Part shown: positions 7,946 through 18,664 of the stretch, piece by piece | Position numbering within the stretch: position 1 is the first letter of the stretch | How the letters are laid out: each line of letters opens with the position of its first letter | From: a virus | Strand: one strand, 5' to 3' | Length of the DNA stretch: 18,814 nucleotides | Virus genome (UHGV): UHGV-2198042 | Position numbers and translations under genes: made by a program | The notes under the pieces: model-generated | The model's input: only the letters and a program-made list of their open reading frames with translations | The model's database searches: none | Told to the model about the DNA's origin: nothing

Positions 7946-8548
7946 TCATCCCCCGAATGCTGATGTAACGCTTCCGCCCAGCTGGCTCAGCAAGGATTCG
8001 TTTGGCGGTGTAGTGGATTTCATCCCGGAATTCTGCACCGCCGATGTGCTGACGCCATCCTGCATATCTGATTTATCTGCAACGCTAACGCTCTGCGTCT
8101 GCGACATGATCACTTCACGCAGGGTAAGCGTGCAGTTCAGCACGTTCTCGCTGGTTTTATCCGTTGTCACCTCGATGGCTCGCACCAGCATATTGCTGTA
8201 AACCCGCTTTCCGGTCACTACATCGAACGGCACCCGAGAGGACTGGAGATCCAGTAGTTGCTGATAGGTCTCTTTCGGGCTAAGTCCGGCGCTGAGGCCG
8301 ATTGACGATGTATCAATGAAGTCCAGCAACGAACCGCCACCTGCGAAGCCGCATTCCATCGTGACTTCGCTGGGGCGCTTATACGCATGATCGGCGATGA
8401 AACCCGACGCGCTATTCGTTGTTGGCTTCTCCACCGGGTGCTCAGTAATTTCGAGCGCATCAGAATGCTTTTCGGAAACGACCACGCTGGGGATCAGCAG
8501 GCCAATTCGCCGGGATTGCTGGCGAAAAATCGCTGATAAAATATCCAT
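7946..8548 (-). CDS. tail protein of unknown function
   Basis: 200 aa ORF immediately downstream of the tape-measure gene; family not recognised. Confidence 0.45.
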   Translation of the reverse strand: MDILSAIFRQQSRRIGLLIPSVVVSEKHSDALEITEHPVEKPTTNSASGFIADHAYKRPSEVTMECGFAGGGSLLDFIDTSSIGLSAGLSPKETYQQLLDLQSSRVPFDVVTGKRVYSNMLVRAIEVTTDKTSENVLNCTLTLREVIMSQTQSVSVADKSDMQDGVSTSAVQNSGMKSTTPPNESLLSQLGGSVTSAFGG

Positions 8549-10185
8549 TATCTCGGTCCTGCGGGGAGTTGCTGGGTTAACTGTGAATTCACGCCCTTTT
8601 GACGGTCAACAGTCAAACGGGCAGCCTCGCGCGGATCGGAAACGCCGTGGATGTTAATGTTCGTTTCCTGCTGAATCACCGGGGCGCTGGTGGGCATATT
8701 GCTCATCACTTTCGGAATGTAGTTGCGCGTTTCCTGCGGCATTAGCCCCATTCCATAACGCTTAACATTCCCGATCCCCCAGTTATATGATGCCAGTGCT
8801 TTGCTAAGGTCTCCGCCGTTCTGCCGCAACAGCTGGCTGAGGTACTTAGCGGCTGCCTGAGCTGACTTTTCCGGGTCGAATACATCATTCCCACGCAGGC
8901 CCATGTCGCGCGCCGTGCCATCCATAAACTGAAACAGTCCTTTCGCGCCTGCGCCGGATATGGCGAACTGGTTACCACCCGACTCGGTGATCGCCACGCT
9001 TTTCAACAGGCCAGCTGGCAGCTGATAAAGCGACTCCAGTTTATTGAACATTGGCCCCATCCAGTCGAGCAATACCTTGCCCTGGGCCGTCGCCTGAGGT
9101 CGCTTAACCGACTGCGCTCGCTGCTCCGGCTCCAGTCCCATCTCCTGAATTTTTCGCTGGATTTGCTCATCAGTGAAAAAGTCTTTGCCGGGATTTTCCT
9201 TTCTCAGCGCCTCATATGCCTGCTGCCTTTCAGGTACGATATTGCTGCCTATACCGCCAATCGACGCCATTTCTTCACTGGTGGTCGGCGTATTGTTGGC
9301 AGGAATGAACATAAGCAACCATGGATTCTTGATTGCCAGCTGTGCGATCCCCTGCGCCAGCTTACCCAGCCCACCAATAGAGCCGCCAATTGCCTTACCA
9401 AGCCCCATAAATCCGGCGACAAGTCGCCCGATGCCAGTGAGCATGGAGACCAGCTTCGCACCAGCCAGAAAGCCAAACAGGATGGTGAGCGTATTTTTCC
9501 AGCCGCCGAGGTTGTCCTTGAGCTCCAGAAACTTATCGCGCAGCCACTTGAACACCTTCTTTGCCTGCTCAATTTCTGGCTGCCATTTGGACCAGTCAAT
9601 CAGGCTTTTACCGCCCTCTTTCCACGTCTGGTAATCGTCGTACAGCAATCCGATCGCCAGAATCAGTGTGGTGATAATTCCAATCGGGGATTTCAGGAAC
9701 GCAGAATTAAGCAGACGCCATGCGACCAGTAGAGCACCGAATATTTTCAGCAGATTTTTACTGCCATCGTCAAGACGCTTCCACCAGTCGATGACAGAGC
9801 CAGCGCCCTGTATCAGCCGCCACGCCATTCTCGTGAATGCGTTCGCAAGCCAGATCACGCCTTTAATAACTCTGGTCAGCGTCTCTTCAATCTTCGGGAA
9901 ATTGTCGAGGATGCGCCGCCGCAGGCTGTCCAGCGAACCAGCCAGGCCACCAGCGAGGTTTGAGCCGATCTTGTCCCGCATGATGCCGAACAGCGACGTA
10001 AGCCCGCGCATGGACGTCATGAATTTGTTGGACTGAACAGCCGCTTTATCAGCGTTGAACCCTGTCTTTTGCAGCATCGACTGGTAATCGGCGGTAAAGC
10101 CATTCATGCCGCGCCGCATCGCCATCAGCGTGTTTTCATCGATGCCAAGCATCTGCGCGTATTGTTTCGCGCGGTAATACGGCAT
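8548..10185 (-). CDS. tail tape-measure-like protein with C-terminal lytic transglycosylase (SLT) domain
   Basis: 545 aa; several Gly/Ala-rich hydrophobic segments; C-terminal ESGGNQFAISGAGAKGLFQFMDGTA...ASYNWG resembles SLT-family transglycosylase motifs; position before the baseplate genes. Confidence 0.65.
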   Translation of the reverse strand: MPYYRAKQYAQMLGIDENTLMAMRRGMNGFTADYQSMLQKTGFNADKAAVQSNKFMTSMRGLTSLFGIMRDKIGSNLAGGLAGSLDSLRRRILDNFPKIEETLTRVIKGVIWLANAFTRMAWRLIQGAGSVIDWWKRLDDGSKNLLKIFGALLVAWRLLNSAFLKSPIGIITTLILAIGLLYDDYQTWKEGGKSLIDWSKWQPEIEQAKKVFKWLRDKFLELKDNLGGWKNTLTILFGFLAGAKLVSMLTGIGRLVAGFMGLGKAIGGSIGGLGKLAQGIAQLAIKNPWLLMFIPANNTPTTSEEMASIGGIGSNIVPERQQAYEALRKENPGKDFFTDEQIQRKIQEMGLEPEQRAQSVKRPQATAQGKVLLDWMGPMFNKLESLYQLPAGLLKSVAITESGGNQFAISGAGAKGLFQFMDGTARDMGLRGNDVFDPEKSAQAAAKYLSQLLRQNGGDLSKALASYNWGIGNVKRYGMGLMPQETRNYIPKVMSNMPTSAPVIQQETNINIHGVSDPREAARLTVDRQKGVNSQLTQQLPAGPR

Positions 10186-10291
10186 GTTGTTGAGCTTTTG
10201 CCCAACCCGCCCTGATAGCTGCCTGTGTGGCGTTTAAATCTTTCAGGTACTCACGGGCAAACAGCTCTTGTTTGTCGGTGAGCTTTGCCAT
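10136..10291 (-). pseudogene. terminase small subunit N-terminal stub
   Basis: 51-codon frame MAKLTDKQELFAREYLKDLNATQAAIRAGW... matches the conserved terS N-terminal HTH motif, then loses similarity and stops; overlaps the tape-measure start in another frame; GGAG RBS upstream. Confidence 0.5.
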
Positions 10292-10531
10292 TGTTGGCTC
10301 CGTTTATCCGTTAAAAGGGATATCAGTTAAGTTATCCCGTGCAGGGTATAAGCCATTGTCGAGACCACTCATTGAATGGCCTCTGCAATAACCGATGTCT
10401 TTCCATCAGCCCGCCACCACAAAGAATCTTTTTTGCCATAAGGCTGGAGGTTCATCTTTCAGTGGCTGCCAGTGTTATTTCCCCACTTACTGGCTTGGGT
10501 TGCTTCGTGGTACTGCCGTAACTGGTGGTGC

Positions 10532-10551
10532 ACAGATTTAGTTAAATCTGT
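10532..10551. promoter_or_regulatory. perfect 9-bp-arm palindrome acagattta-gt-taaatctgt
   Basis: Seen directly in the roughly 350-bp noncoding region between the 85-aa ORF and the terS stub. Confidence 0.25.
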
Positions 10552-10643
10552 TCTCGCCTGAACTATCTTTTACATACCCGGATTGTGGGGATGTAAATCA
10601 CGGTTTCATTATCAAGCCCACCCGTAGATGGGCTTTGTAATGG

Positions 10644-10901
10644 CTACTTCGCTTTTGCTTCCGCTCGCTTACGCCGGCGCTCTTCTTTCCTCTCGGCTTT
10701 TGCCATGTCCATGAATGCCTGCATGATCGAGTTCCGCATCATGTAGCTAACAAAGTGATGATTGACACAGCCGTTGAGGCGCAGCTGCTCGCCAAACTCA
10801 TCCACCGAGGCCAATGCTTCCCTCATGCCCTTCTCGCCTTTCATGAACTCTGAGAAGTCGCGCCCCGCTCTGGAGGCGCATTCAATGACACGATCACTCA
10901 T
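10644..10901 (-). CDS. hypothetical protein with basic C-terminal tail
   Basis: 85 aa ORF whose start overlaps the KilA-N gene stop (ATGA); C-terminus AKAERKEERRRKRAEAKAK; hairpin after the stop. Confidence 0.45.
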   Translation of the reverse strand: MSDRVIECASRAGRDFSEFMKGEKGMREALASVDEFGEQLRLNGCVNHHFVSYMMRNSIMQAFMDMAKAERKEERRRKRAEAKAK

Positions 10902-11395
10902 CCCGGAAGCCCGGGGATCGTAATCTGCAGCTGGTTAGCCAGGGAGTTAATCTCAGCGACCAACACTGGCTTCGTATAGCGCCATGCTGCCAGCCCTTGT
11001 CCGCAGAAGCTCGCCATGTCTTTCTTCTGGTCAAACTCATGACATTTCATGTTGAGCTGCGCACTTAAGCTGTTGCGATGCTGAAGTTCTCCGGTGAAGT
11101 AGTCATCGAGGACTTTATAGGCCGCGTACTTGAACCCGGGGTTTAACCAAGCCGCATAATCGTAAGCAACAAACTTCCCGCCATATGTTCCACCGTGTAC
11201 ACCGCGCTCAGTAAAAACCACAGATTCGTGGTTTTTCTCCAGCTCGGCTAAGAACTCTTTGGTCTGCTTGTTTCGCAGGTAGTGGTAAGGCGATTCAGAT
11301 TCACTTTTACCACTAGCTTTCCACATATCAGTGAGGCAGATCATGCCATCTTCACCGATACGAATTGGTTGATTGAAGAGGGTTAATGATTTCAT
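10898..11395 (-). CDS. KilA-N domain protein
   Basis: 165 aa; N-terminal LTLFNQPIRIGEDGMICLTDMWKASGK...YHYLRNKQTKEFLAELE fits the KilA-N DNA-binding fold pattern from memory. Confidence 0.55.
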   Translation of the reverse strand: MKSLTLFNQPIRIGEDGMICLTDMWKASGKSESESPYHYLRNKQTKEFLAELEKNHESVVFTERGVHGGTYGGKFVAYDYAAWLNPGFKYAAYKVLDDYFTGELQHRNSLSAQLNMKCHEFDQKKDMASFCGQGLAAWRYTKPVLVAEINSLANQLQITIPGLPG

Positions 11396-11509
11396 AGCGT
11401 GTACCTACTCTTTGAAATGAACCTTTGCCGCACAGGAAACCAGCCCACCGAGGCTCGCCAGCACTAACTGGTATCCTCAAAGGCCCATTCCAAAGGGGCA
11501 GGTTCGGTG

Positions 11510-11566
11510 TAAAAAACATGCGTTGCGGTACGCATTTATTGCAAAAAGCCCCGCATCGCGAGGCTC
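11510..11566 (-). terminator. tandem intrinsic terminators downstream of Rz
   Basis: Minus strand: agcctcgc-gat-gcggggct + ttttt, then atgcgt-accgca-acgcat + gtttttt. Confidence 0.5.
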
Positions 11567-11596
11567 ATTAAATGGACTTTGTGATTTGCAAAAAAA

Positions 11597-12064
11597 TTAT
11601 TTCAGGCATTGCGTCCTGATGTATTCCTGCAGGTAGTTAACCTGCGCGGTTATCTTGTCGATTCCACTTCGTAGACGGTAATAATTGAGTTCAGCATCTG
11701 CTGTAAGTCTTGGGCTTTCTCCATCGCCCATGCTGCTGGCTCCGGTCGTTGACTTTGCACAGGTGGCGGCGACTTGCAGGCGCTTACGGCCAGCAATGAC
11801 ATCGCTATGCAGACGCTCAATGGTTTCTTTCGCATCAGCCAGTTCTCCGGTGTATTTGGCATCCAGTGCAGCGACATCACGCTGGCGGGTCTGCATGTCT
11901 TTAATGGTGGCGGTCGCCAGGAGGAGTTTCTCAGTGGCCTTATCGCGCTGGTCTCTGTAAGTGATGGCGTTGTCGCGGTAGTGGTTCACGAAGAAAGCCA
12001 GTGCGCCGATTAACGCCAGCACCAGCAACTGCAGCCAGTAACGCTTAACCAGTGCGCTAATCAT
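11597..12064 (-). CDS. Rz: i-spanin Rz
   Basis: 155 aa; N-terminal TM helix then ...[18 protein letters not shown]...[20 protein letters not shown] closely resembles lambda Rz; start overlaps R stop. Confidence 0.85.
11650..11835 (-). CDS. Rz1: o-spanin Rz1 (embedded in Rz, +1 frame)
   Basis: Internal start [20 protein letters not shown] with a lipobox (LAVSAC) and Pro-rich mature region, fully nested in Rz as in lambda. Confidence 0.7.
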
Positions 12065-12510
12065 GACAGGAACAGAGCTCGCTCTGCCTTGCGGCGATTC
12101 GTGAGCCCCGGCATCACCTTTCCGCCTGATTTATTCCAGCGCAGAAATTCATCTGCCGCGCCTTTTATATCGCCAGCATTCAGCTTTTTCAGCAGTGTAG
12201 ATGTGGAAAGAGCACGCGACCCAACGTTGTAAGCGAACGACACCAGTGCGTCGAACTGGCCTTGTGTCAGCTTCACCCTGACAACTTTCAGCACGTCATT
12301 CTCATAACCAACAAGCCCTGTTTTCAGAAGCCTGTCAGCGGTTTGCTGGTCGATAGTCATACCGCGCTTTACTGGCTTTCCGTCAACCGGATGGGTCCAG
12401 CCATAGCCGATGGTCCACGGCGCATCTCCCGTTCCGGGGTCGGGGTAAGCAGTCAGCCGACAACCTTCAAATTTTTTTATCAGAGCAATTCCGTCAGGAC
12501 TGGTTTGCAT
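12061..12510 (-). CDS. R: endolysin, T4/P22-type lysozyme (GH24)
   Basis: From internal Met [16 protein letters not shown]... about 149 aa; ...[14 protein letters not shown]...[11 protein letters not shown] matches the P22 gp19-type lysozyme from memory; the ORF-track N-terminal extension overlaps the holin gene. Confidence 0.85.
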
Positions 12511-12817
12511 CGTCAACTCCCGCCTTTTTTGCTGCAAGTTTTTTAATAAGATTGCCGATCGAATCGGTGCCGATGTATCCAATAAAGACGCTGGCTATGT
12601 AGGCGAGGTTGCTGCTCAGGCCGATAAAGTCCAGAAGGTCACGAACGAACCAGGCAATCATCGCGCACATCAGCGCATCAATTAGCGTTTTTGTTACCGC
12701 GCCGCCGTTATAGCGACCACGCAGATACGCCATGATAAAAGCCAGCATTGCACCAATACCCTGCTCCTTGGCGGCAAGTAGCGCAGCGATGAAATCTTGT
12801 TTGTATGGCATTTTCAT
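12494..12817 (-). CDS. S: class I holin, lambda S-like (dual-start MKM)
   Basis: [39 protein letters not shown]... is near-identical in pattern to lambda S; GGAGG RBS; the ORF-track upstream start (12826) is probably not used. Confidence 0.85.
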
Positions 12818-13025
12818 AGGCCTCACCTCCGATTTTCCGGATGGTGCTGTGTGTGTGTTTGAAAAGGGTCAGGCTTCACGGGCTGGATTTATCAACAAAG
12901 CACGTAGCGGATGATTCCCGTGAGCCTGAAATTGATGAATATGTCTGAAATAACTAGACCATTAGTAAAACAACTCGATAAATGTGGTTAAATGAGACTA
13001 CGTTCTCACAACTTAATTAGTACCA

Positions 13026-13196
13026 ATGATTATCAAGCCCTGCCCCTACTGCGGAAAGTTAATTAACCCAGAATCACTTGTGTGTAGCCACTGCCGGATA
13101 GTGAATCCTTTTGTGAAGGCCAGCAGAAGAGAAAAAGCGAAGAATGTATTAGTAATCGCTCTCGTTGCTGCTTTTTTAATTTGGATGATTCTCTGA
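13026..13196 (+). CDS. small zinc-ribbon protein with C-terminal TM helix
   Basis: 56 aa below the ORF-track cutoff: MIIKPCPYCGKLINPESLVCSHCRIVNPFVKASRREKAKNVLVIALVAAFLIWMIL; CxxC...CxxC plus hydrophobic tail; no strong SD. Confidence 0.4.
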   Translation: MIIKPCPYCGKLINPESLVCSHCRIVNPFVKASRREKAKNVLVIALVAAFLIWMIL

Positions 13197-13633
13197 GTTG
13201 CCAGTTTTCAATGAAGATAATGCGGGCAAAAAAAGCCTGCTCGGACGAACAGGCATGAAAAATAACAATACCGTCAAGGAGGTGGCGCCGGGTGCCTCCC
13301 GGTGGAACAGCCCCAGCCGACTAGTTCCGCGCAAACAAACCTGGACAAAAAAGTTTGACTGGACGCCCCGCCGCATAGGGGGATTCACCACGAACCAAAA
13401 GATAAAATCATCCGGTGACCGGGGCAATATCTAACCGGAACTTTTCAGAATCACTTATTGTTTCCTGGAGAGTACATGAGCGTTGGTGAATTCACGTGAT
13501 GCTTTTGGATGAGCGCTGAACCCAAAGGTCAGTATTTTCACACAGCAATTTTGCAAAAAGCAGCGCCCATTCAAAACCAGGTCGCTTTCCAGTCACTCCG
13601 GGGAACCCATCATCGCAGACTGGAAAGCTTTTA

Positions 13634-14133: not shown

Positions 14134-14208
14134 TGGCGGGATAGCGTGGACTCGAACCACGATAAGAAGGTTAACAGCCTTCCGTAATGACCTTTATACG
14201 ACTGACCC
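14134..14208 (-). tRNA. tRNA-like element, anticodon GUU (Asn-like), probably degenerate
   Basis: 75 nt on minus strand: acceptor gggtcag, D-arm with A14 and GG, anticodon stem gaagg/ccttc with loop cuGUUaa, T-arm cgtgg-TTCGAGT-ccacg, 3' ctatccc-g-CCA; acceptor stem has 2 central mismatches. Confidence 0.35.
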
Positions 14209-14298: not shown

Positions 14299-14787
14299 CT
14301 ATGCTACATGTTTAATTTTCTCTACACGTTTCCGGTTTTTAAACGCACTATCCAGAACCGGGTAAATCATAAACAACGAGGCATTGAGGATTTCGTCAAC
14401 TTCCCGACGACAGGTTGCGAGCGATGGTTTTTGAATGCGCCCTCCGCCCCGGCATAACATCTTGCGAGGTCTTGCGACGCGATGATAGTAAGATGCAATG
14501 GCGTGCTTGGAAGATCCATGGGCGTAGTAGCTGAGGAGGATGCCAAAGGCTTTCTTGTCAATGTACATGACGGAATCGACGACCTGAGAAATCAACATTC
14601 CATCATCATCATTGCACATTGGCCTTGTCATAACTCTTCCCGGCTCTACGCTCTCCATGAACTTCGCTATTACGCTGCTCATGCGCTTTTCAAGACGACC
14701 TGAATAAACCCATGCCCCCCACAGTTCAAGCCAGCCATTCAGCCACTCGTGCTGCTCTTTGGTGAGGTTTAGTTCTCTTATGCCCAT
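14299..14787 (-). CDS. Q: late-gene antiterminator Q (non-lambda Q family)
   Basis: 162 aa ORF immediately downstream of ninH and upstream of the lysis cassette; several Cys/His; no similarity to lambda Q itself but the size fits small Q proteins (phage 21 type, from memory). Confidence 0.6.
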   Translation of the reverse strand: MGIRELNLTKEQHEWLNGWLELWGAWVYSGRLEKRMSSVIAKFMESVEPGRVMTRPMCNDDDGMLISQVVDSVMYIDKKAFGILLSYYAHGSSKHAIASYYHRVARPRKMLCRGGGRIQKPSLATCRREVDEILNASLFMIYPVLDSAFKNRKRVEKIKHVA

Positions 14788-16524: not shown

Positions 16525-17559
16525 CTAATCGACCAGAATCATGCCAACACATCCTTTTTCTCGCTTGATTCGACGACTTTCGCTGACGATTTGAGCCAGA
16601 GATAATCCCGGCGTGTCGTCGATGTAAAGCAGGTCGATTTCACTCAAGCGATTGGCTGTTTCGATCGCCCTGTTGAAGTCACCATCGTAATCACCCTGAT
16701 AGCCGTCATCAGCGTCATTTGTCGCCGGAATGTAAAAAATATTCGGGTTAACACCTGACTTCTGTCCTACCAGCTTTTCCAGTATCTGGTCGCCTGGCAT
16801 TTCAAGACTGAACATCAGAGCGGGCTTTTTCTCATGCACTGCGCAGTTGATTGCCATCTGGCTGTATAGCGTCGTTTTCCCCATCTTAGGGCGAGCGCCA
16901 ATGACGAACAGAGAGCCTTTCACCAGACCTTTCGGTGACAGCATCCTGTCCAGAGATGGGATCCCTGTGCTCATTCCTCGTTGTTCGCCTGACGGGTCAA
17001 ATCGCTTCTCAAGGTCGCTAACCCAGTCTTCCATGACCTCACCAAATGAGCGAAGGCCGCGACGCGATCCGGTTTTTGCATGGTCTGTCAGTTGCGTGAA
17101 AATCGCCTGAATAGCTTCGTACTTCTGCGTTGCAGTCATTCCGTTGCGGGAATAGAGCAATTCCGTCGCTTCAGTCATGCGGTTGATGGCGTAGCGTTCC
17201 ATTGCGGTTTCACGAACCTGCATTGCATAGGCAACGATGTTTGCTGCGCTTGGCGTGTTCTTTGCGATCTCAGCGATATAAGCAAAACCGCCAACAGACG
17301 CCGTTAACGATTTACGCTCCAGTTCATCGAAAAGCGTCAGGCCATCTACTGGCTTTTGCTCCCGGTGCATTCTGGTTATTTCTTCGAAAAGGATTTTGTG
17401 TGGTCGGCTGTAAAATGAATCAGGCTTCAGCATCGCCAGAACTTTCTGGACGCGCTCACTGCTGTCATCATCCAGAAGCAATCCACCAATCACCGCCTGC
17501 TCTGCCTCGATGCTATGGGGCGGCGCATAAAAATTATCGGTCATCGTGTTCACCCTCAC
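16525..17559 (-). pseudogene. DnaB-like replicative helicase (P22 gene 12 type), 3'-truncated at Walker B
   Basis: 344 aa; Walker A GARPKMGKT present; ends ...GCVGMILVD* exactly where the DnaB Walker B motif (hhhhDYLQ) should continue; about 100 C-terminal residues missing. Confidence 0.7.
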
Positions 17560-18217: not shown

Positions 18218-18664
18218 ACCGGGCAACGAGTCGGTGATTTATGCGAAATGAAGTGGTCTGATATCGTAGATGGATATCTTTATGTCGAGCAAAGCAAAAC
18301 GGGCGTAAAAATTGCCATCCCTACAACATTGCATGTTGATGCTCTCGGGATATCAATGAAGGAAACACTTGATAAATGCAAAGAGATTCTTGGCGGAGAA
18401 ACCATAATTGCATCTACTCGTCGAGAACCGCTTTCATCCGGCACAGTATCAAGGTATTTTATGCGCGCACGAAAAGCATCAGGTCTTTCCTTCGAAGGGG
18501 ATCCGCCTACCTTTCACGAGTTGCGCAGTTTGTCTGCAAGACTCTATGAGAAGCAGATAAGCGATAAGTTTGCTCAACATCTTCTCGGGCATAAGTCGGA
18601 CACCATGGCATCACAGTATCGTGATGACAGAGGCAGGGAGTGGGACAAAATTGAAATCAAATAA
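18218..18664 (+). pseudogene. int: integrase C-terminal fragment (lambda Int residues about 209-356)
   Basis: Translation ...TGQRVGDLCEMKWSDIVDGYLYVEQSKTGVKIAIPT...HELRSLSARLYEKQISDKFAQHLLGHKSDTMASQYRDDRGREWDKIEIK* is near-identical to the lambda Int C-terminus from memory; upstream of about 18218 the frame is unrelated and hits a stop at 18140-18142. Confidence 0.85.

Follow-up and report, generated by a model that had tools for sequence, protein, structure and literature searches.

The Bro/KilA-N genes were reportedly recognized as a domain-shuffling network by Iyer, Koonin and Aravind in 2002. Few genes of temperate phages are as abundant or as poorly understood as those of this network (Rha, Ant, KilA-N and relatives), some of which are antirepressors that decide the induction of resident prophages, including Stx phages. 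The KilA-N and ORF11CD3 domains, which are combined in one of the proteins considered here, are both listed modules of the network (domain list in PMC10111431).

The closest described relatives of the two-gene cassette in the 18,814-nt stretch analyzed here (virus genome UHGV-2198042; hereafter the window) are hkbK/hkbL of phage HK620 and the pairs of several Stx phages, namely phage 2851 ('kilA'), the Stx2-converting phage 1717 and PhiR49_1, in which the gene is named 'KilA-N-ORF11CD3'. These show 94-100% protein identity with the window and likewise occur after Rz, with no essential difference, the 85-aa protein of the window having one private substitution (M27R) relative to them. Genes of the hkbK/hkbL type are annotated as 'unknown' or 'hypothetical' in the records; literature searches on hkbK/hkbL retrieved nothing related and those on PhiR49 nothing, and papers on phage L, Stx-phage architecture and the 'window into lysogeny' contained nothing bearing on the cassette. 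A further point of reference is rha of P22, which inhibits lytic growth of this phage when misregulated in IHF-deficient hosts (PMC4936722). P22 is also the source of P22F, a small RNA of 89 nt reported in 2026 without known function, which accumulates in P22-infected cells and in vesicles, with read counts of 926 and 2054 in the table of that paper (Noncoding RNA 2026, PMC13397905).

Organization and spread of the cassette

The two ORFs of the cassette (Table 1) overlap by 4 nt (plus strand 10898-10901 reads tcat, i.e. ATGA in the coding sense), and through this overlap the 85-aa protein is translationally coupled to the KilA-N protein. Both the coupled gene pair and its boundaries had been correctly given in a first-pass annotation of the sequence, which also rightly placed it where lambdoid phages carry accessory genes: holin, lysozyme and Rz/Rz1 genes lie upstream, with Q further upstream still, and the cassette occupies a position of variable content flanked by Rz and the terminase genes, downstream of which three unrelated packaging modules (lambda Nu1/A-type, P22-type and P27/HNH-type) are found across phages. 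Searches of Pfam, PHROGs, NCBIfam and PDB linked neither protein to terminase-accessory or structural proteins. The cassette is a common accessory, non-structural two-gene module of lambda-like prophages, present in 222 phage records and in 2,128 of 5,426 E. coli genomes, with both the ORFs and the associated hairpins retained across hundreds of phages. A scan of genome contigs with the alignment of the 85-aa protein recovered 5 loci, and a scan of viral contigs recovered 80 that are near-identical and of no use for assessing protein diversity. The prophage in the window is defective, its head genes being deleted, and both cassette ORFs are intact despite this decay; given the state of the prophage, the cassette is probably silent cargo in the window.

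Table 1. Coordinates of the cassette genes and of the RNA elements flanking and preceding them
Feature	Position in window	Strand	Remarks
85-aa partner gene	10644-10901	minus	homologue of HK620 hkbL
KilA-N + ORF11CD3 gene	10898-11395	minus	165 aa; homologue of HK620 hkbK
3' hairpin after 85-aa stop codon	10607-10642	minus	-18.8 kcal/mol, without U-tract
Conserved structured leader of KilA-N gene	11396-11535	minus	~140 nt; P2, P3, P1, P4 and Shine-Dalgarno
Long imperfect hairpin P1-P4	11404-11502	minus	~40 bp
P1 (basal helix)	11487-11502 / 11404-11418	minus	includes Shine-Dalgarno UAGG 11404-11407
P4a	11478-11486 / 11419-11427	minus	
P4b	11474-11477 / 11434-11437	minus	
P4c	11468-11471 / 11440-11443	minus	
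P3 5' strand CACCGA	11504-11509	minus	pairs with apical loop of long hairpin
P3 3' strand TCGGTG	11446-11451	minus	within P4 apical loop
P2 hairpin ATGCGT-N6-ACGCAT	11518-11535, then U6 (11510-11516)	minus	RNA fold, 6 bp
T1, intrinsic terminator after Rz	stem 11546-11566, loop GAU, U-run 11540-11545	minus	RNA fold

Domain architecture of the two proteins

Sequence profile analysis of the 165-aa protein recovered a KilA-N domain (PF04383) at residues 9-101 (E=1.3e-15, 57.6 bits against a cutoff of 23.8) and an ORF11CD3 domain (PF10549) at residues 109-161 (E=2.4e-13, 50.5 bits against a cutoff of 25); the first-pass annotation had named the former and missed the latter. The KilA-N part displays an APSES-like alpha/beta fold resembling the APSES domain of Mbp1, and ORF11CD3 is modelled as a helical hairpin. 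The protein is thus a fusion of a predicted DNA-binding domain of the KilA-N/APSES type to a helical-hairpin ORF11CD3 domain. The PHROG matches of the cassette carry the label 'transcriptional regulator / anti-repressor', which would suggest kinship with antirepressors at the level of family resemblance.

The 85-aa protein aligns along its entire length with PHROG 875 (E=7e-53). Its AlphaFold2 model (pLDDT 92.6) comprises three helices (3-20, 26-42 and 48-84), its conserved residues include C8/C45/H48/H49, and it ends in KEERRRKRAEAKAK, the strongly basic tail to which attention had already been drawn. The family is narrow: at 50% identity its members fall into 21 clusters in a set of 1.84 billion proteins. 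The fold is absent from the named modules of the Bro network and occurs both free-standing and fused N-terminally to T5orf172/MUG113. For neither protein did sequence searches of PDB return anything meaningful, Foldseek comparisons of both models with PDB gave no match at E<0.1, and an NCBIfam search gave no match to the cassette proteins. Any function proposed for them below is a prediction from domain family and gene neighbors.

Of 32 loci with window-like KilA-N genes, 29 have the gene for the 85-aa protein next in line, as against none of 40 loci with other Bro genes. Its product was considered as a partner of the ORF11CD3 domain and rejected in this role, being absent after Rha or P22_AR_N proteins that bear this domain (0/40 loci); it does follow KilA-N proteins with either ORF11CD3 or P63C. 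The partner goes with this KilA-N subfamily and not with ORF11CD3.

A conserved structured leader precedes the KilA-N gene

The 205-nt gap between Rz and the KilA-N gene folds better than its shuffled versions (z = -3.2; 2 of 200 as good), and most of it is occupied by a conserved structured leader that is recovered by our covariance model R1 at 11384-11562 with 125.9 bits (E=8e-28). In the minimum-free-energy fold of the leader (-48.7 kcal/mol) the Shine-Dalgarno is paired, and such pairing is seen in the folds of two divergent leader types. When the nascent transcript is folded without the 3' half of P4, which has yet to be made, P3 is part of the minimum-free-energy structure. The nested P3 state is 14-18 kcal/mol weaker, and instead of alternating, P3 and the full hairpin may be present together in a bent pseudoknot.

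These helices are supported by covariation. Among 64 distinct sequences all 6 pairs of P3 are changed on both sides, with 90.6% of cells paired and the variants CGAGAG/CTCTCG, CCCGAG/CTCGGG, CAAGAG/CTCTTG, CACCGA/TCGGTG, ACAGAA/TTCTGT and CCAGAG/CTCTGG. P4 shows compensatory changes in 11 of 16 pairs with 92-95% of cells paired, the alignments used for P3 and P4 having been fitted to the model structure. The segment P1+P4a, in which the P1 columns were not fitted by the model, shows such changes in 13 of 18 pairs with 89% paired. Across the covariation set (62-64 distinct sequences) slid controls were 24-70% paired; because many of the sequences are closely related, there are fewer independent events than the cell counts suggest. 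When 16 diverse copies were aligned with MAFFT and the alignment was used raw, 87.3% of cells were paired versus 77.5% in shuffled alignments (0 of 500 reach the observed value), with compensatory changes in 5 of the 6 pairs of P3. The frequent G-U pairs fix the strand as mRNA sense. The pairs that cover the Shine-Dalgarno (CCUUU/AAAGG) are nearly invariant, so that its sequestration is consistent with covariation and weakly proven by it. A short contiguous 'anti-SD' helix was rejected, being by itself not significant in many variants (shuffle p 0.1-0.65); the pairing of the Shine-Dalgarno is better seen as the base of a longer, imperfect helix.

An apparently uncatalogued RNA family upstream of Bro-network genes

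An Rfam search of 10500-11700 gave no match at E<=10, while Gifsy-1, used as a positive control, matched isrK, C4 and c4-a1b1. An assignment of the leader to IsrK/C4-type RNAs was rejected on these grounds and because R1 misses Gifsy-1; the leader family is apparently uncatalogued, and we found no description in the searchable literature of an RNA leader common to the Bro network. The output of a DNA pattern scan mixed true copies with chance matches and was filtered with the covariance model. We found 92 leader variants, preceding 65 distinct ORFs, of which the 61 with at least 60 aa form 18 clusters. All clusters with a Pfam match contain KilA-N, Rha, P22_AR_N, ANT, T5orf172 or HNH_3. The leader thus stands ahead of antirepressor-like ('Bro network') genes in numerous enterobacterial phages; it is also present in 73 records of Stx2a-converting phages.

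P22 has the same leader as the window ahead of rha (R1 129.5 bits at 39470-39655). The annotated start of P22 rha appears to be wrong by 69 nt. The small RNA P22F corresponds to the leader hairpin, with its 3' end 6 nt ahead of the rha start codon, and the minus strand of the window from 11487 down is identical to its first 79 nt, diverging near the Shine-Dalgarno. The position of its 5' end, within the hairpin, points to processing and not to initiation. The existence of a stable 89-nt hairpin species in infected cells and vesicles (PMC13397905), taken together with the analogy of Gifsy-1 IsrK, which is both a small RNA and an mRNA leader, might imply that the leader is mainly a processed small RNA acting in trans on host or phage targets and not a gate in cis. 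We regard this as unlikely, since the element comes with neither a promoter nor a terminator, always lies directly 5' of a Bro-type ORF and maintains a conserved pairing to the Shine-Dalgarno region of that ORF, and since so stable a hairpin (-41 to -49 kcal/mol) could leave the 89-nt fragment behind as an intermediate of decay. A role in trans would also be compatible with regulation in cis.

Terminators, promoters and the mode of expression

The first-pass annotation had described the cassette as set off from Rz by two tandem terminators, and followed by a hairpin of its own, and had suggested on this basis that it is independently expressed, possibly from a promoter in 11396-11510. The first terminator stands: T1 has a GC-rich stem of 9 bp followed by U5, and nearly every copy of the leader is preceded by an equivalent GC hairpin and U-run with different, covarying stems. 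The second hairpin is instead helix P2 of the leader, whose GCGC stem is kept in all variants (pair 44/53 changing from C-G to U-A in the window) and whose U-run is restricted to the window/P22-type variant. The downstream hairpin is present and conserved, the first 37 nt past the stop codon of the 85-aa gene being 89-100% conserved in nearly all cassette copies with mosaic sequence beyond, and lacks the U-tract of a terminator. A consensus scan for terminators over a 3-kb region showed no enrichment (4 found versus 3.5 expected).

Independent expression itself is not supported, because a consensus scan of the coding strand over 11396-11600, the proposed region included, detected nothing resembling a sigma-70 promoter. 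T1 is the only conserved terminator. An autonomous 'moron', expressed in the prophage to the advantage of host or prophage from a promoter located after the Rz terminators and before the ATG, and insulated by terminators on both sides, would account for the terminator-like hairpins upstream, the hairpin downstream and the survival of both ORFs in an otherwise decayed prophage, and the HK620-type spacer indeed contains a match TTCACA-16-TATTAA, read by eye and overlapping P2. This reading nevertheless seems decidedly unlikely. The stretch that separates T1 from the leader shows no conserved -35/-10 pair among leader variants, the candidate region is deleted in three homologues (L103, L166 and L138), and in the window a U-run stands at the -10 position. 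The P22 and HK620 records have no promoter annotated at this position, the position of the P22F 5' end points to processing, and rha has been described as a gene of the late operon (PMC4936722).

Intrinsic terminators are no obstacle to late transcription in lambdoid phages. Q-modified RNA polymerase passes through them, and the terminators therefore argue for late-only expression and not for autonomy. The cassette would have no promoter of its own and would be transcribed only by Q-antiterminated polymerase from pR' through T1, and its transcription would be limited to lytic growth.

A homology block at 11543-11632, comprising the 3' end of Rz and T1, recombines apart from the leader. Because mosaic breakpoints separate the two, T1 belongs to the Rz/lysis module, of which it marks the 3' end, and the leader goes with the gene. 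These breakpoints fall exactly at the edges of the conserved stretch, HK620 and the window diverging at the ATG and others between T1 and P2; one homologue (L091) carries four tandem leader modules, one inserted in a remnant of the 85-aa gene; and domain swaps are visible inside Bro-type genes. The stretch might accordingly be viewed as chiefly a DNA recombination linker ('boundary sequence') for Bro-gene swaps with no function as RNA, which we consider very unlikely, as compensatory and G-U substitutions preserve the pairing at 27 of 38 pairs, slid controls fall to 36-57% paired, and a pure recombination substrate would not show such retention through divergence.

That the pair is instead a prophage-encoded anti-phage defence or abortive-infection system kept for protection of the lysogen, as might be suggested by the KilA-N domain of BstA (PMC8585504), the intact ORFs in a defective prophage and a partial, weak match in PADLOC-DB 2.0, limited to residues 60-90, with the candidate system PDC-S22 (E=1.2e-8), is highly improbable: the match covers only ~30 residues of the shared domain with no full-length match for the KilA-N protein and none for the 85-aa protein in that database, KilA-N and ORF11CD3 fill the 165 aa and leave no space for an effector domain, and a defence gene expressed in the lysogen would require the reverse of the arrangement seen here, where the genes lie late in the operon, lack a recognizable promoter and are preceded by a terminator and a translational lock.

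A model for the function of the leader and the cassette

On balance we lean towards placing the cassette in the Bro network as an accessory module of the late operon, consisting of a putative DNA-binding protein and its partner, whose translation is gated by a distinct leader RNA. The favored long hairpin would throttle translation by pairing the Shine-Dalgarno in its basal helix. P3 could form first on the nascent RNA and delay, or compete with, closure of this hairpin, and such a delay would open a short co-transcriptional window for the loading of ribosomes; alternatively, they might load only after a trans-acting factor has opened the hairpin. The result would be a tightly limited synthesis of a potentially harmful regulator. 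At its most speculative, the model would have the protein pair bind DNA or a repressor late in infection, with an antirepressor-like or growth-modulating role, proposed by analogy with Rha of P22 and phi80, which shares the leader and the C-terminal domain.

More tentatively, the leader could be the founding example of an uncatalogued family of cis-regulatory RNAs that gates translation of the Bro network as a whole. Members of this family might, with the same reserve, be kinetic or factor-dependent switches built from a hairpin occluding the Shine-Dalgarno and a competing or pseudoknotted P3. The genes under such control, in a proposal that we hold no more firmly, would encode KilA-N, Rha, P22_AR_N, ANT, T5orf172 and HNH proteins in the late regions of enterobacterial temperate phages. 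The result is modest at the protein level, concerning a very common pair found here in a defective prophage. A shared covarying leader that buries the ribosome-binding site would represent a common post-transcriptional lock on Bro-network genes, would explain P22F and might explain the harm done by rha in IHF-deficient hosts. The leader also provides a sequence-and-structure signature for finding Bro-type genes and correcting their starts.

Comparison with known systems

BstA of the BTP1 prophage, which acts in abortive infection, resembles the 165-aa protein in being prophage-encoded with an N-terminal KilA-N domain and differs from the cassette in size, genomic position and expression logic; BstA is about twice as long and its gene adjoins the repressor gene. 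The rha gene (ORF201) of P22 and phi80 shares with the cassette the C-terminal ORF11CD3 domain and the slot after Rz. It has an N-terminal Phage_pRha domain in place of KilA-N, is not followed by a gene for the 85-aa partner, and has a phenotype, growth inhibition in IHF-deficient hosts (PMC4936722), where none is reported for the KilA-N pair. The phi80 leader is of the HK620 type (100% identity over 128 nt), and the leader of HK620 belongs to another sequence type than that of the window.

With respect to regulatory logic, the nearest parallels are the isrK-orf45-anrP locus of Gifsy-1 and the c4-type loci of P1 and N15. The Gifsy-1 RNA belongs to a different family (Rfam isrK, C4 and c4-a1b1, none of which the window matches), and the window has no upstream small ORF and no dedicated promoter or trans-acting small RNA that we could identify. 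Nevertheless, in these systems as in the window a gene of the antirepressor family lies behind a terminator and a leader, and the leader likewise has, by prediction in the window, alternative pairings and a translationally inactive fold that occludes the ribosome-binding site.

Genomic context of the KilA-N cassette

The KilA-N gene and the 85-aa gene, which the first-pass annotation had described as translationally coupled, are both found on the minus strand, with the stop codon of the 165-aa ORF and the start of the 85-aa ORF overlapping in an ATGA. The 165-aa protein matches the Pfam families KilA-N (E=1.3e-15) and ORF11CD3 (E=2.4e-13), each exceeding the curated cut-off. That annotation also placed two tandem terminators before the cassette and a hairpin of its own after it; the hairpins are indeed present, but the second is helix P2 of a conserved leader RNA lying between the first (T1) and the KilA-N start, and the 3' hairpin is devoid of a U-tract. 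The proposed independent expression finds no support: a consensus scan of 11396-11600 found no promoter for the cassette, and the presence upstream of Q, a tRNA gene, an STnc100 match, holin, lysozyme and Rz/Rz1 places it in the late transcription unit. The 3' hairpin recurs about 250 nt downstream as a diverged direct repeat (10353-10389 against 10607-10643) and, because in many relatives the post-repeat sequence directly abuts the hairpin, the intervening stretch looks like an insertion between the two. The zinc-ribbon ORF between the STnc100 region and holin has a hydrophobic C-terminus and is a possible moron.

Coordinates of the cassette, its leader and neighboring features in the window
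Feature	Coordinates	Strand	Remarks
SLT/tape-measure-like gene and junction region	8548-10291	minus	truncated
Terminase_2 small subunit remnant	10207-10291		
3' hairpin after 85-aa gene	10607-10642	minus	fold
85-aa gene	10644-10901	minus	ORF
KilA-N gene, 165 aa	10898-11395	minus	ORF
Leader RNA	11396-11535		helices P1-P4
T1	11540-11566		hairpin and U-run
Rz / Rz1	11597-12064 / 11650-11880		upstream of cassette
Lysozyme	12061-12582		upstream of cassette
Holin, lambda-type	12494-12826		upstream of cassette
56-aa zinc-ribbon ORF	13026-13196	plus	DUF2116/Zn_ribbon_3
STnc100 small-RNA match	13224-13416	minus	Rfam, 71.7 bits; between Q and holin, expected pR' leader position
tRNA gene	14137-14208	minus	just downstream of Q
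Q antiterminator	14299-14787		farther upstream of cassette
Second Bro-network gene, 240 aa	15618-16340	minus	Phage_pRha + ANT/KilAC
DnaB-like helicase, decay region	16525-17559		truncated
Phage_integrase, decay region	18248-18664		opposite strand

The window prophage is defective. About 28 codons of the Terminase_2 small subunit are left (10207-10291), in a 51-aa ORF that retains its first ~31 residues, and near 10206 this remnant is joined to an SLT/tape-measure-like gene lacking its N-terminal part (545 aa versus 755 aa in E. coli 873.10). The head genes have been lost: terminase large subunit, portal, capsid and proximal tail genes are all missing. Decay continues at the right end, with a truncated DnaB-like helicase that aligns to no more than positions 1-136 of 255 in the DnaB_C profile and an integrase reduced to a Phage_integrase fragment of 138 aa.

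A conserved structured leader RNA

What stands out here is the conserved leader RNA, rather than the gene pair. Rz and KilA-N are separated by 201 nt, whose predicted fold (-73.8 kcal/mol; z = -3.2 versus shuffles) comprises a 9-bp GC hairpin with a U-run, a 6-bp hairpin with U6 and a hairpin of about 100 nt. Comparison of 52 distinct upstream sequences revealed a mosaic, in which a block formed by the Rz 3' end and T1 recombines apart from a block comprising the second and the long hairpin. The copies of the HK620 type show no apparent kinship by BLAST; compared side by side, all variants, including those of Erwinia phage phiEt88 and of a Salmonella contig with four tandem copies, share one architecture, namely T1, the small GCGC hairpin P2 and a structured segment of about 110 nt ending at the Shine-Dalgarno. 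The leader has no match in Rfam 15 at E<=10.

When 16 diverse copies are simply aligned with MAFFT, a hand-drawn structure has 87.3% of its cells paired, as against 77.5% in column shuffles (none of 500 reaching the observed value) and 25-57% with slid partners; because the sequences are related, the shuffle statistics are not to be read as probabilities. Two main scans of the analysed loci with covariance models built from the leader (R1 and R2) gave 153 significant matches, and a separate nhmmer scan recovered 165 with 92 distinct core sequences. The covariation alignments contain 62-64 distinct sequences, two of these alignments being fitted to the model. In P4, which takes up the top two thirds of the long hairpin, 11 of 16 pairs have changed on both sides, with 92-95% of cells paired; in P1 and P4a (part of P4) 13 of 18 are compensatory, with 89% of cells paired, P1 being a basal extension outside the fitted model. 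P3, a 6-bp helix between the segment immediately 5' of the hairpin and its apical loop, has compensatory changes in all six pairs and occurs as at least seven helix sequences. As G-U pairs are abundant, the structure is on the mRNA sense strand.

The minimum-energy fold of both divergent types is a long hairpin (-48.7 kcal/mol in the window, -40.7 in the HK620 type) enclosing the Shine-Dalgarno within its basal helix by CCUG/UAGG and CCUUU/AAAGG pairing respectively, and the pairs covering it barely vary. A nested fold with P3 enforced is 14-18 kcal/mol weaker. Yet when the nascent RNA is folded only as far as the loop, P3 belongs to its minimum-energy structure and should therefore form first during transcription. 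Since the 5' strand of P3 lies directly against the foot of the ~40-bp long hairpin, with the 3' strand in the hairpin loop, the geometry suggests that P3 and the hairpin could coexist only with a sharp bend and would otherwise be alternatives.

Genes downstream of the leader

The 92 leader variants precede 65 distinct ORFs, 61 of which reach 60 aa or more and form 18 clusters. Their Pfam families are Phage_pRha (with or without ORF11CD3), KilA-N (with or without ORF11CD3 or P63C), P22_AR_N+ORF11CD3, ANT/KilAC, T5orf172/MUG113 and HNH_3 (with or without AP2); three cluster representatives match no Pfam family. Every assignable family belongs either to the Bro network of shuffling phage DNA-binding and antirepressor-like domains or to the HNH type. 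The homing-endonuclease-like HNH_3 genes (L087, 1514-1689; L046, ~92-230; L183, ~11135-11249) imply that the cargo is not strictly antirepressor-like. The HK620-type leader alone occurs in 152 phage records, its carriers including phi80 (upstream of rha), HK639, 73 Stx2a-converting phages and phages of Klebsiella, Enterobacter, Pantoea and Hafnia. On the Salmonella Kottbus contig AAHRTZ010000048 (L091, 396-3763) four leader and Bro-gene modules stand in tandem, one before holin and three after lysozyme, and one has inserted into what is left of an 85-aa gene (VSNRVIECASRAGR...). The array looks like cassette-style accretion at the leader. The second Bro-network gene of the window, in the nin region upstream of Q, has no leader copy, R1 matching the window only once.

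In P22 (NC_002371) the model scores 129.5 bits at 39470-39655, immediately 5' of rha, whose start it aligns to 39644; the annotated 39575 falls within the leader. From 39644 Rha is a 178-aa Phage_pRha+ORF11CD3 protein. A 2026 study of P22 small RNAs reported P22F, an 89-nt RNA with read counts of 926 and 2054 and 'no known function' (PMC13397905). Its sequence is the leader hairpin, with 79 nt identical to the window, and its 3' end lies 6 nt before the rha start, indicating that the leader RNA is made and stable during infection. PMC4936722, citing Henthorn and Friedman 1995, assigns rha to the late operon and describes its product as harmful to lytic growth when the host is IHF-deficient.

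The gene pair as an exchangeable module

Homologues of the KilA-N protein display domain shuffling, with ORF11CD3 kept behind a different KilA-N or Rha N-terminus, or KilA-N kept with a changed C-terminus. The 85-aa protein has no Pfam family and aligns with PHROG 875 along its entire length (E=7e-53). Its predicted model (pLDDT 92.6) has three helices, the third long and basic, with no structural relatives in the PDB at E<1. The family, with an invariant core ECASRAGRDFSEF...GCVN, is very narrow, forming 133 clusters when grouped at 90% identity and numbering 21 representatives in a set of 1.84 billion proteins, and the named matches of the 133-cluster search are from Enterobacterales (Escherichia, Enterobacter, Klebsiella, Citrobacter, Salmonella, Rouxiella) or their phages (HK97 p61). 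In the distant relatives P0230, P0233 and an L162 ORF the same fold is an N-terminal domain fused to T5orf172/MUG113, and hence behaves as a further module of the shuffling network. The window protein carries a private M27R relative to all 80 nearest relatives; the basic tail (10644-10665; loci L004-L088) differs in length by 6-nt steps of alternating alanine-lysine codons among near-identical copies.

The 85-aa gene follows a window-like KilA-N gene at 29 of 32 loci with distinct leaders, most of these loci having been retrieved with the 85-aa protein as query. It also follows KilA-N+P63C genes in Scandinavium and Raoultella, and Rha, P22_AR_N or other genes, ORF11CD3 carriers included, in none of 40 cases. 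Matches to the 1.2-kb cassette region occur in 222 phage records and in 2,128 of the 5,426 complete E. coli genomes searched, named carriers being HK620 (hkbK/hkbL), phage 2851 ('kilA') and PhiR49_1 ('KilA-N-ORF11CD3'). Since the downstream packaging genes vary between lambda Nu1/A-type, P22-type and P27/HNH-type, the cassette is an exchangeable accessory module and not a packaging factor. A PADLOC search for known defence systems yielded solely a candidate system, matched in part over 30 residues. The pair is a known, common, uncharacterised module.

Potential mechanism and comparison with known RNA control

Beyond the observed anatomy, conservation, covariation and Bro-network association of the leader, we infer the following mechanism. 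The cassette would have no promoter of its own; T1 would halt ordinary polymerase, and only Q-modified polymerase from pR' would get to the cassette. The leader would curb translation by closing over the Shine-Dalgarno. P3 might provide a transient open state on the nascent RNA, or serve a factor as its docking or pseudoknot element. Coupling would keep synthesis of the KilA-N protein, probably a dimer via the helical hairpin, at a constant ratio to that of its 85-aa partner. The weakest step is that the pair might act late in infection on DNA or a repressor. Kinetic control of a similar sort operates in the MS2 maturation gene and hok mRNAs, which the P3-based gating proposed here resembles.

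RNA control of antirepressor genes is established in P22 sar-ant, P1 c4-icd-ant and Gifsy-1 IsrK-orf45-anrP, in the last of which the inactive fold of the leader hides the ribosome-binding site (PMC4825925). Rfam isrK, C4 and c4-a1b1 all match the Gifsy-1 region but not the window, and the leader covariance model does not match Gifsy-1, ruling out an RNA of the IsrK/C4 type. Within Gifsy-1 (34131-34329, isrK-orf45) the a1b1 target match overlaps isrK, which suggests that the IsrK system is a relative of P1 c4-type antisense control. Leader sequences were found in full text solely in the P22F paper, and no description of a shared leader was found in the ORF11CD3 and KilA-N literature, older subscription literature being outside the scope of both searches. 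The leader seems to be a regulatory element of Bro-network genes that is absent from the catalogues and, as neither direction of the model test matched, one that would work like the sar-ant, c4 and IsrK systems yet belongs to a different RNA family.
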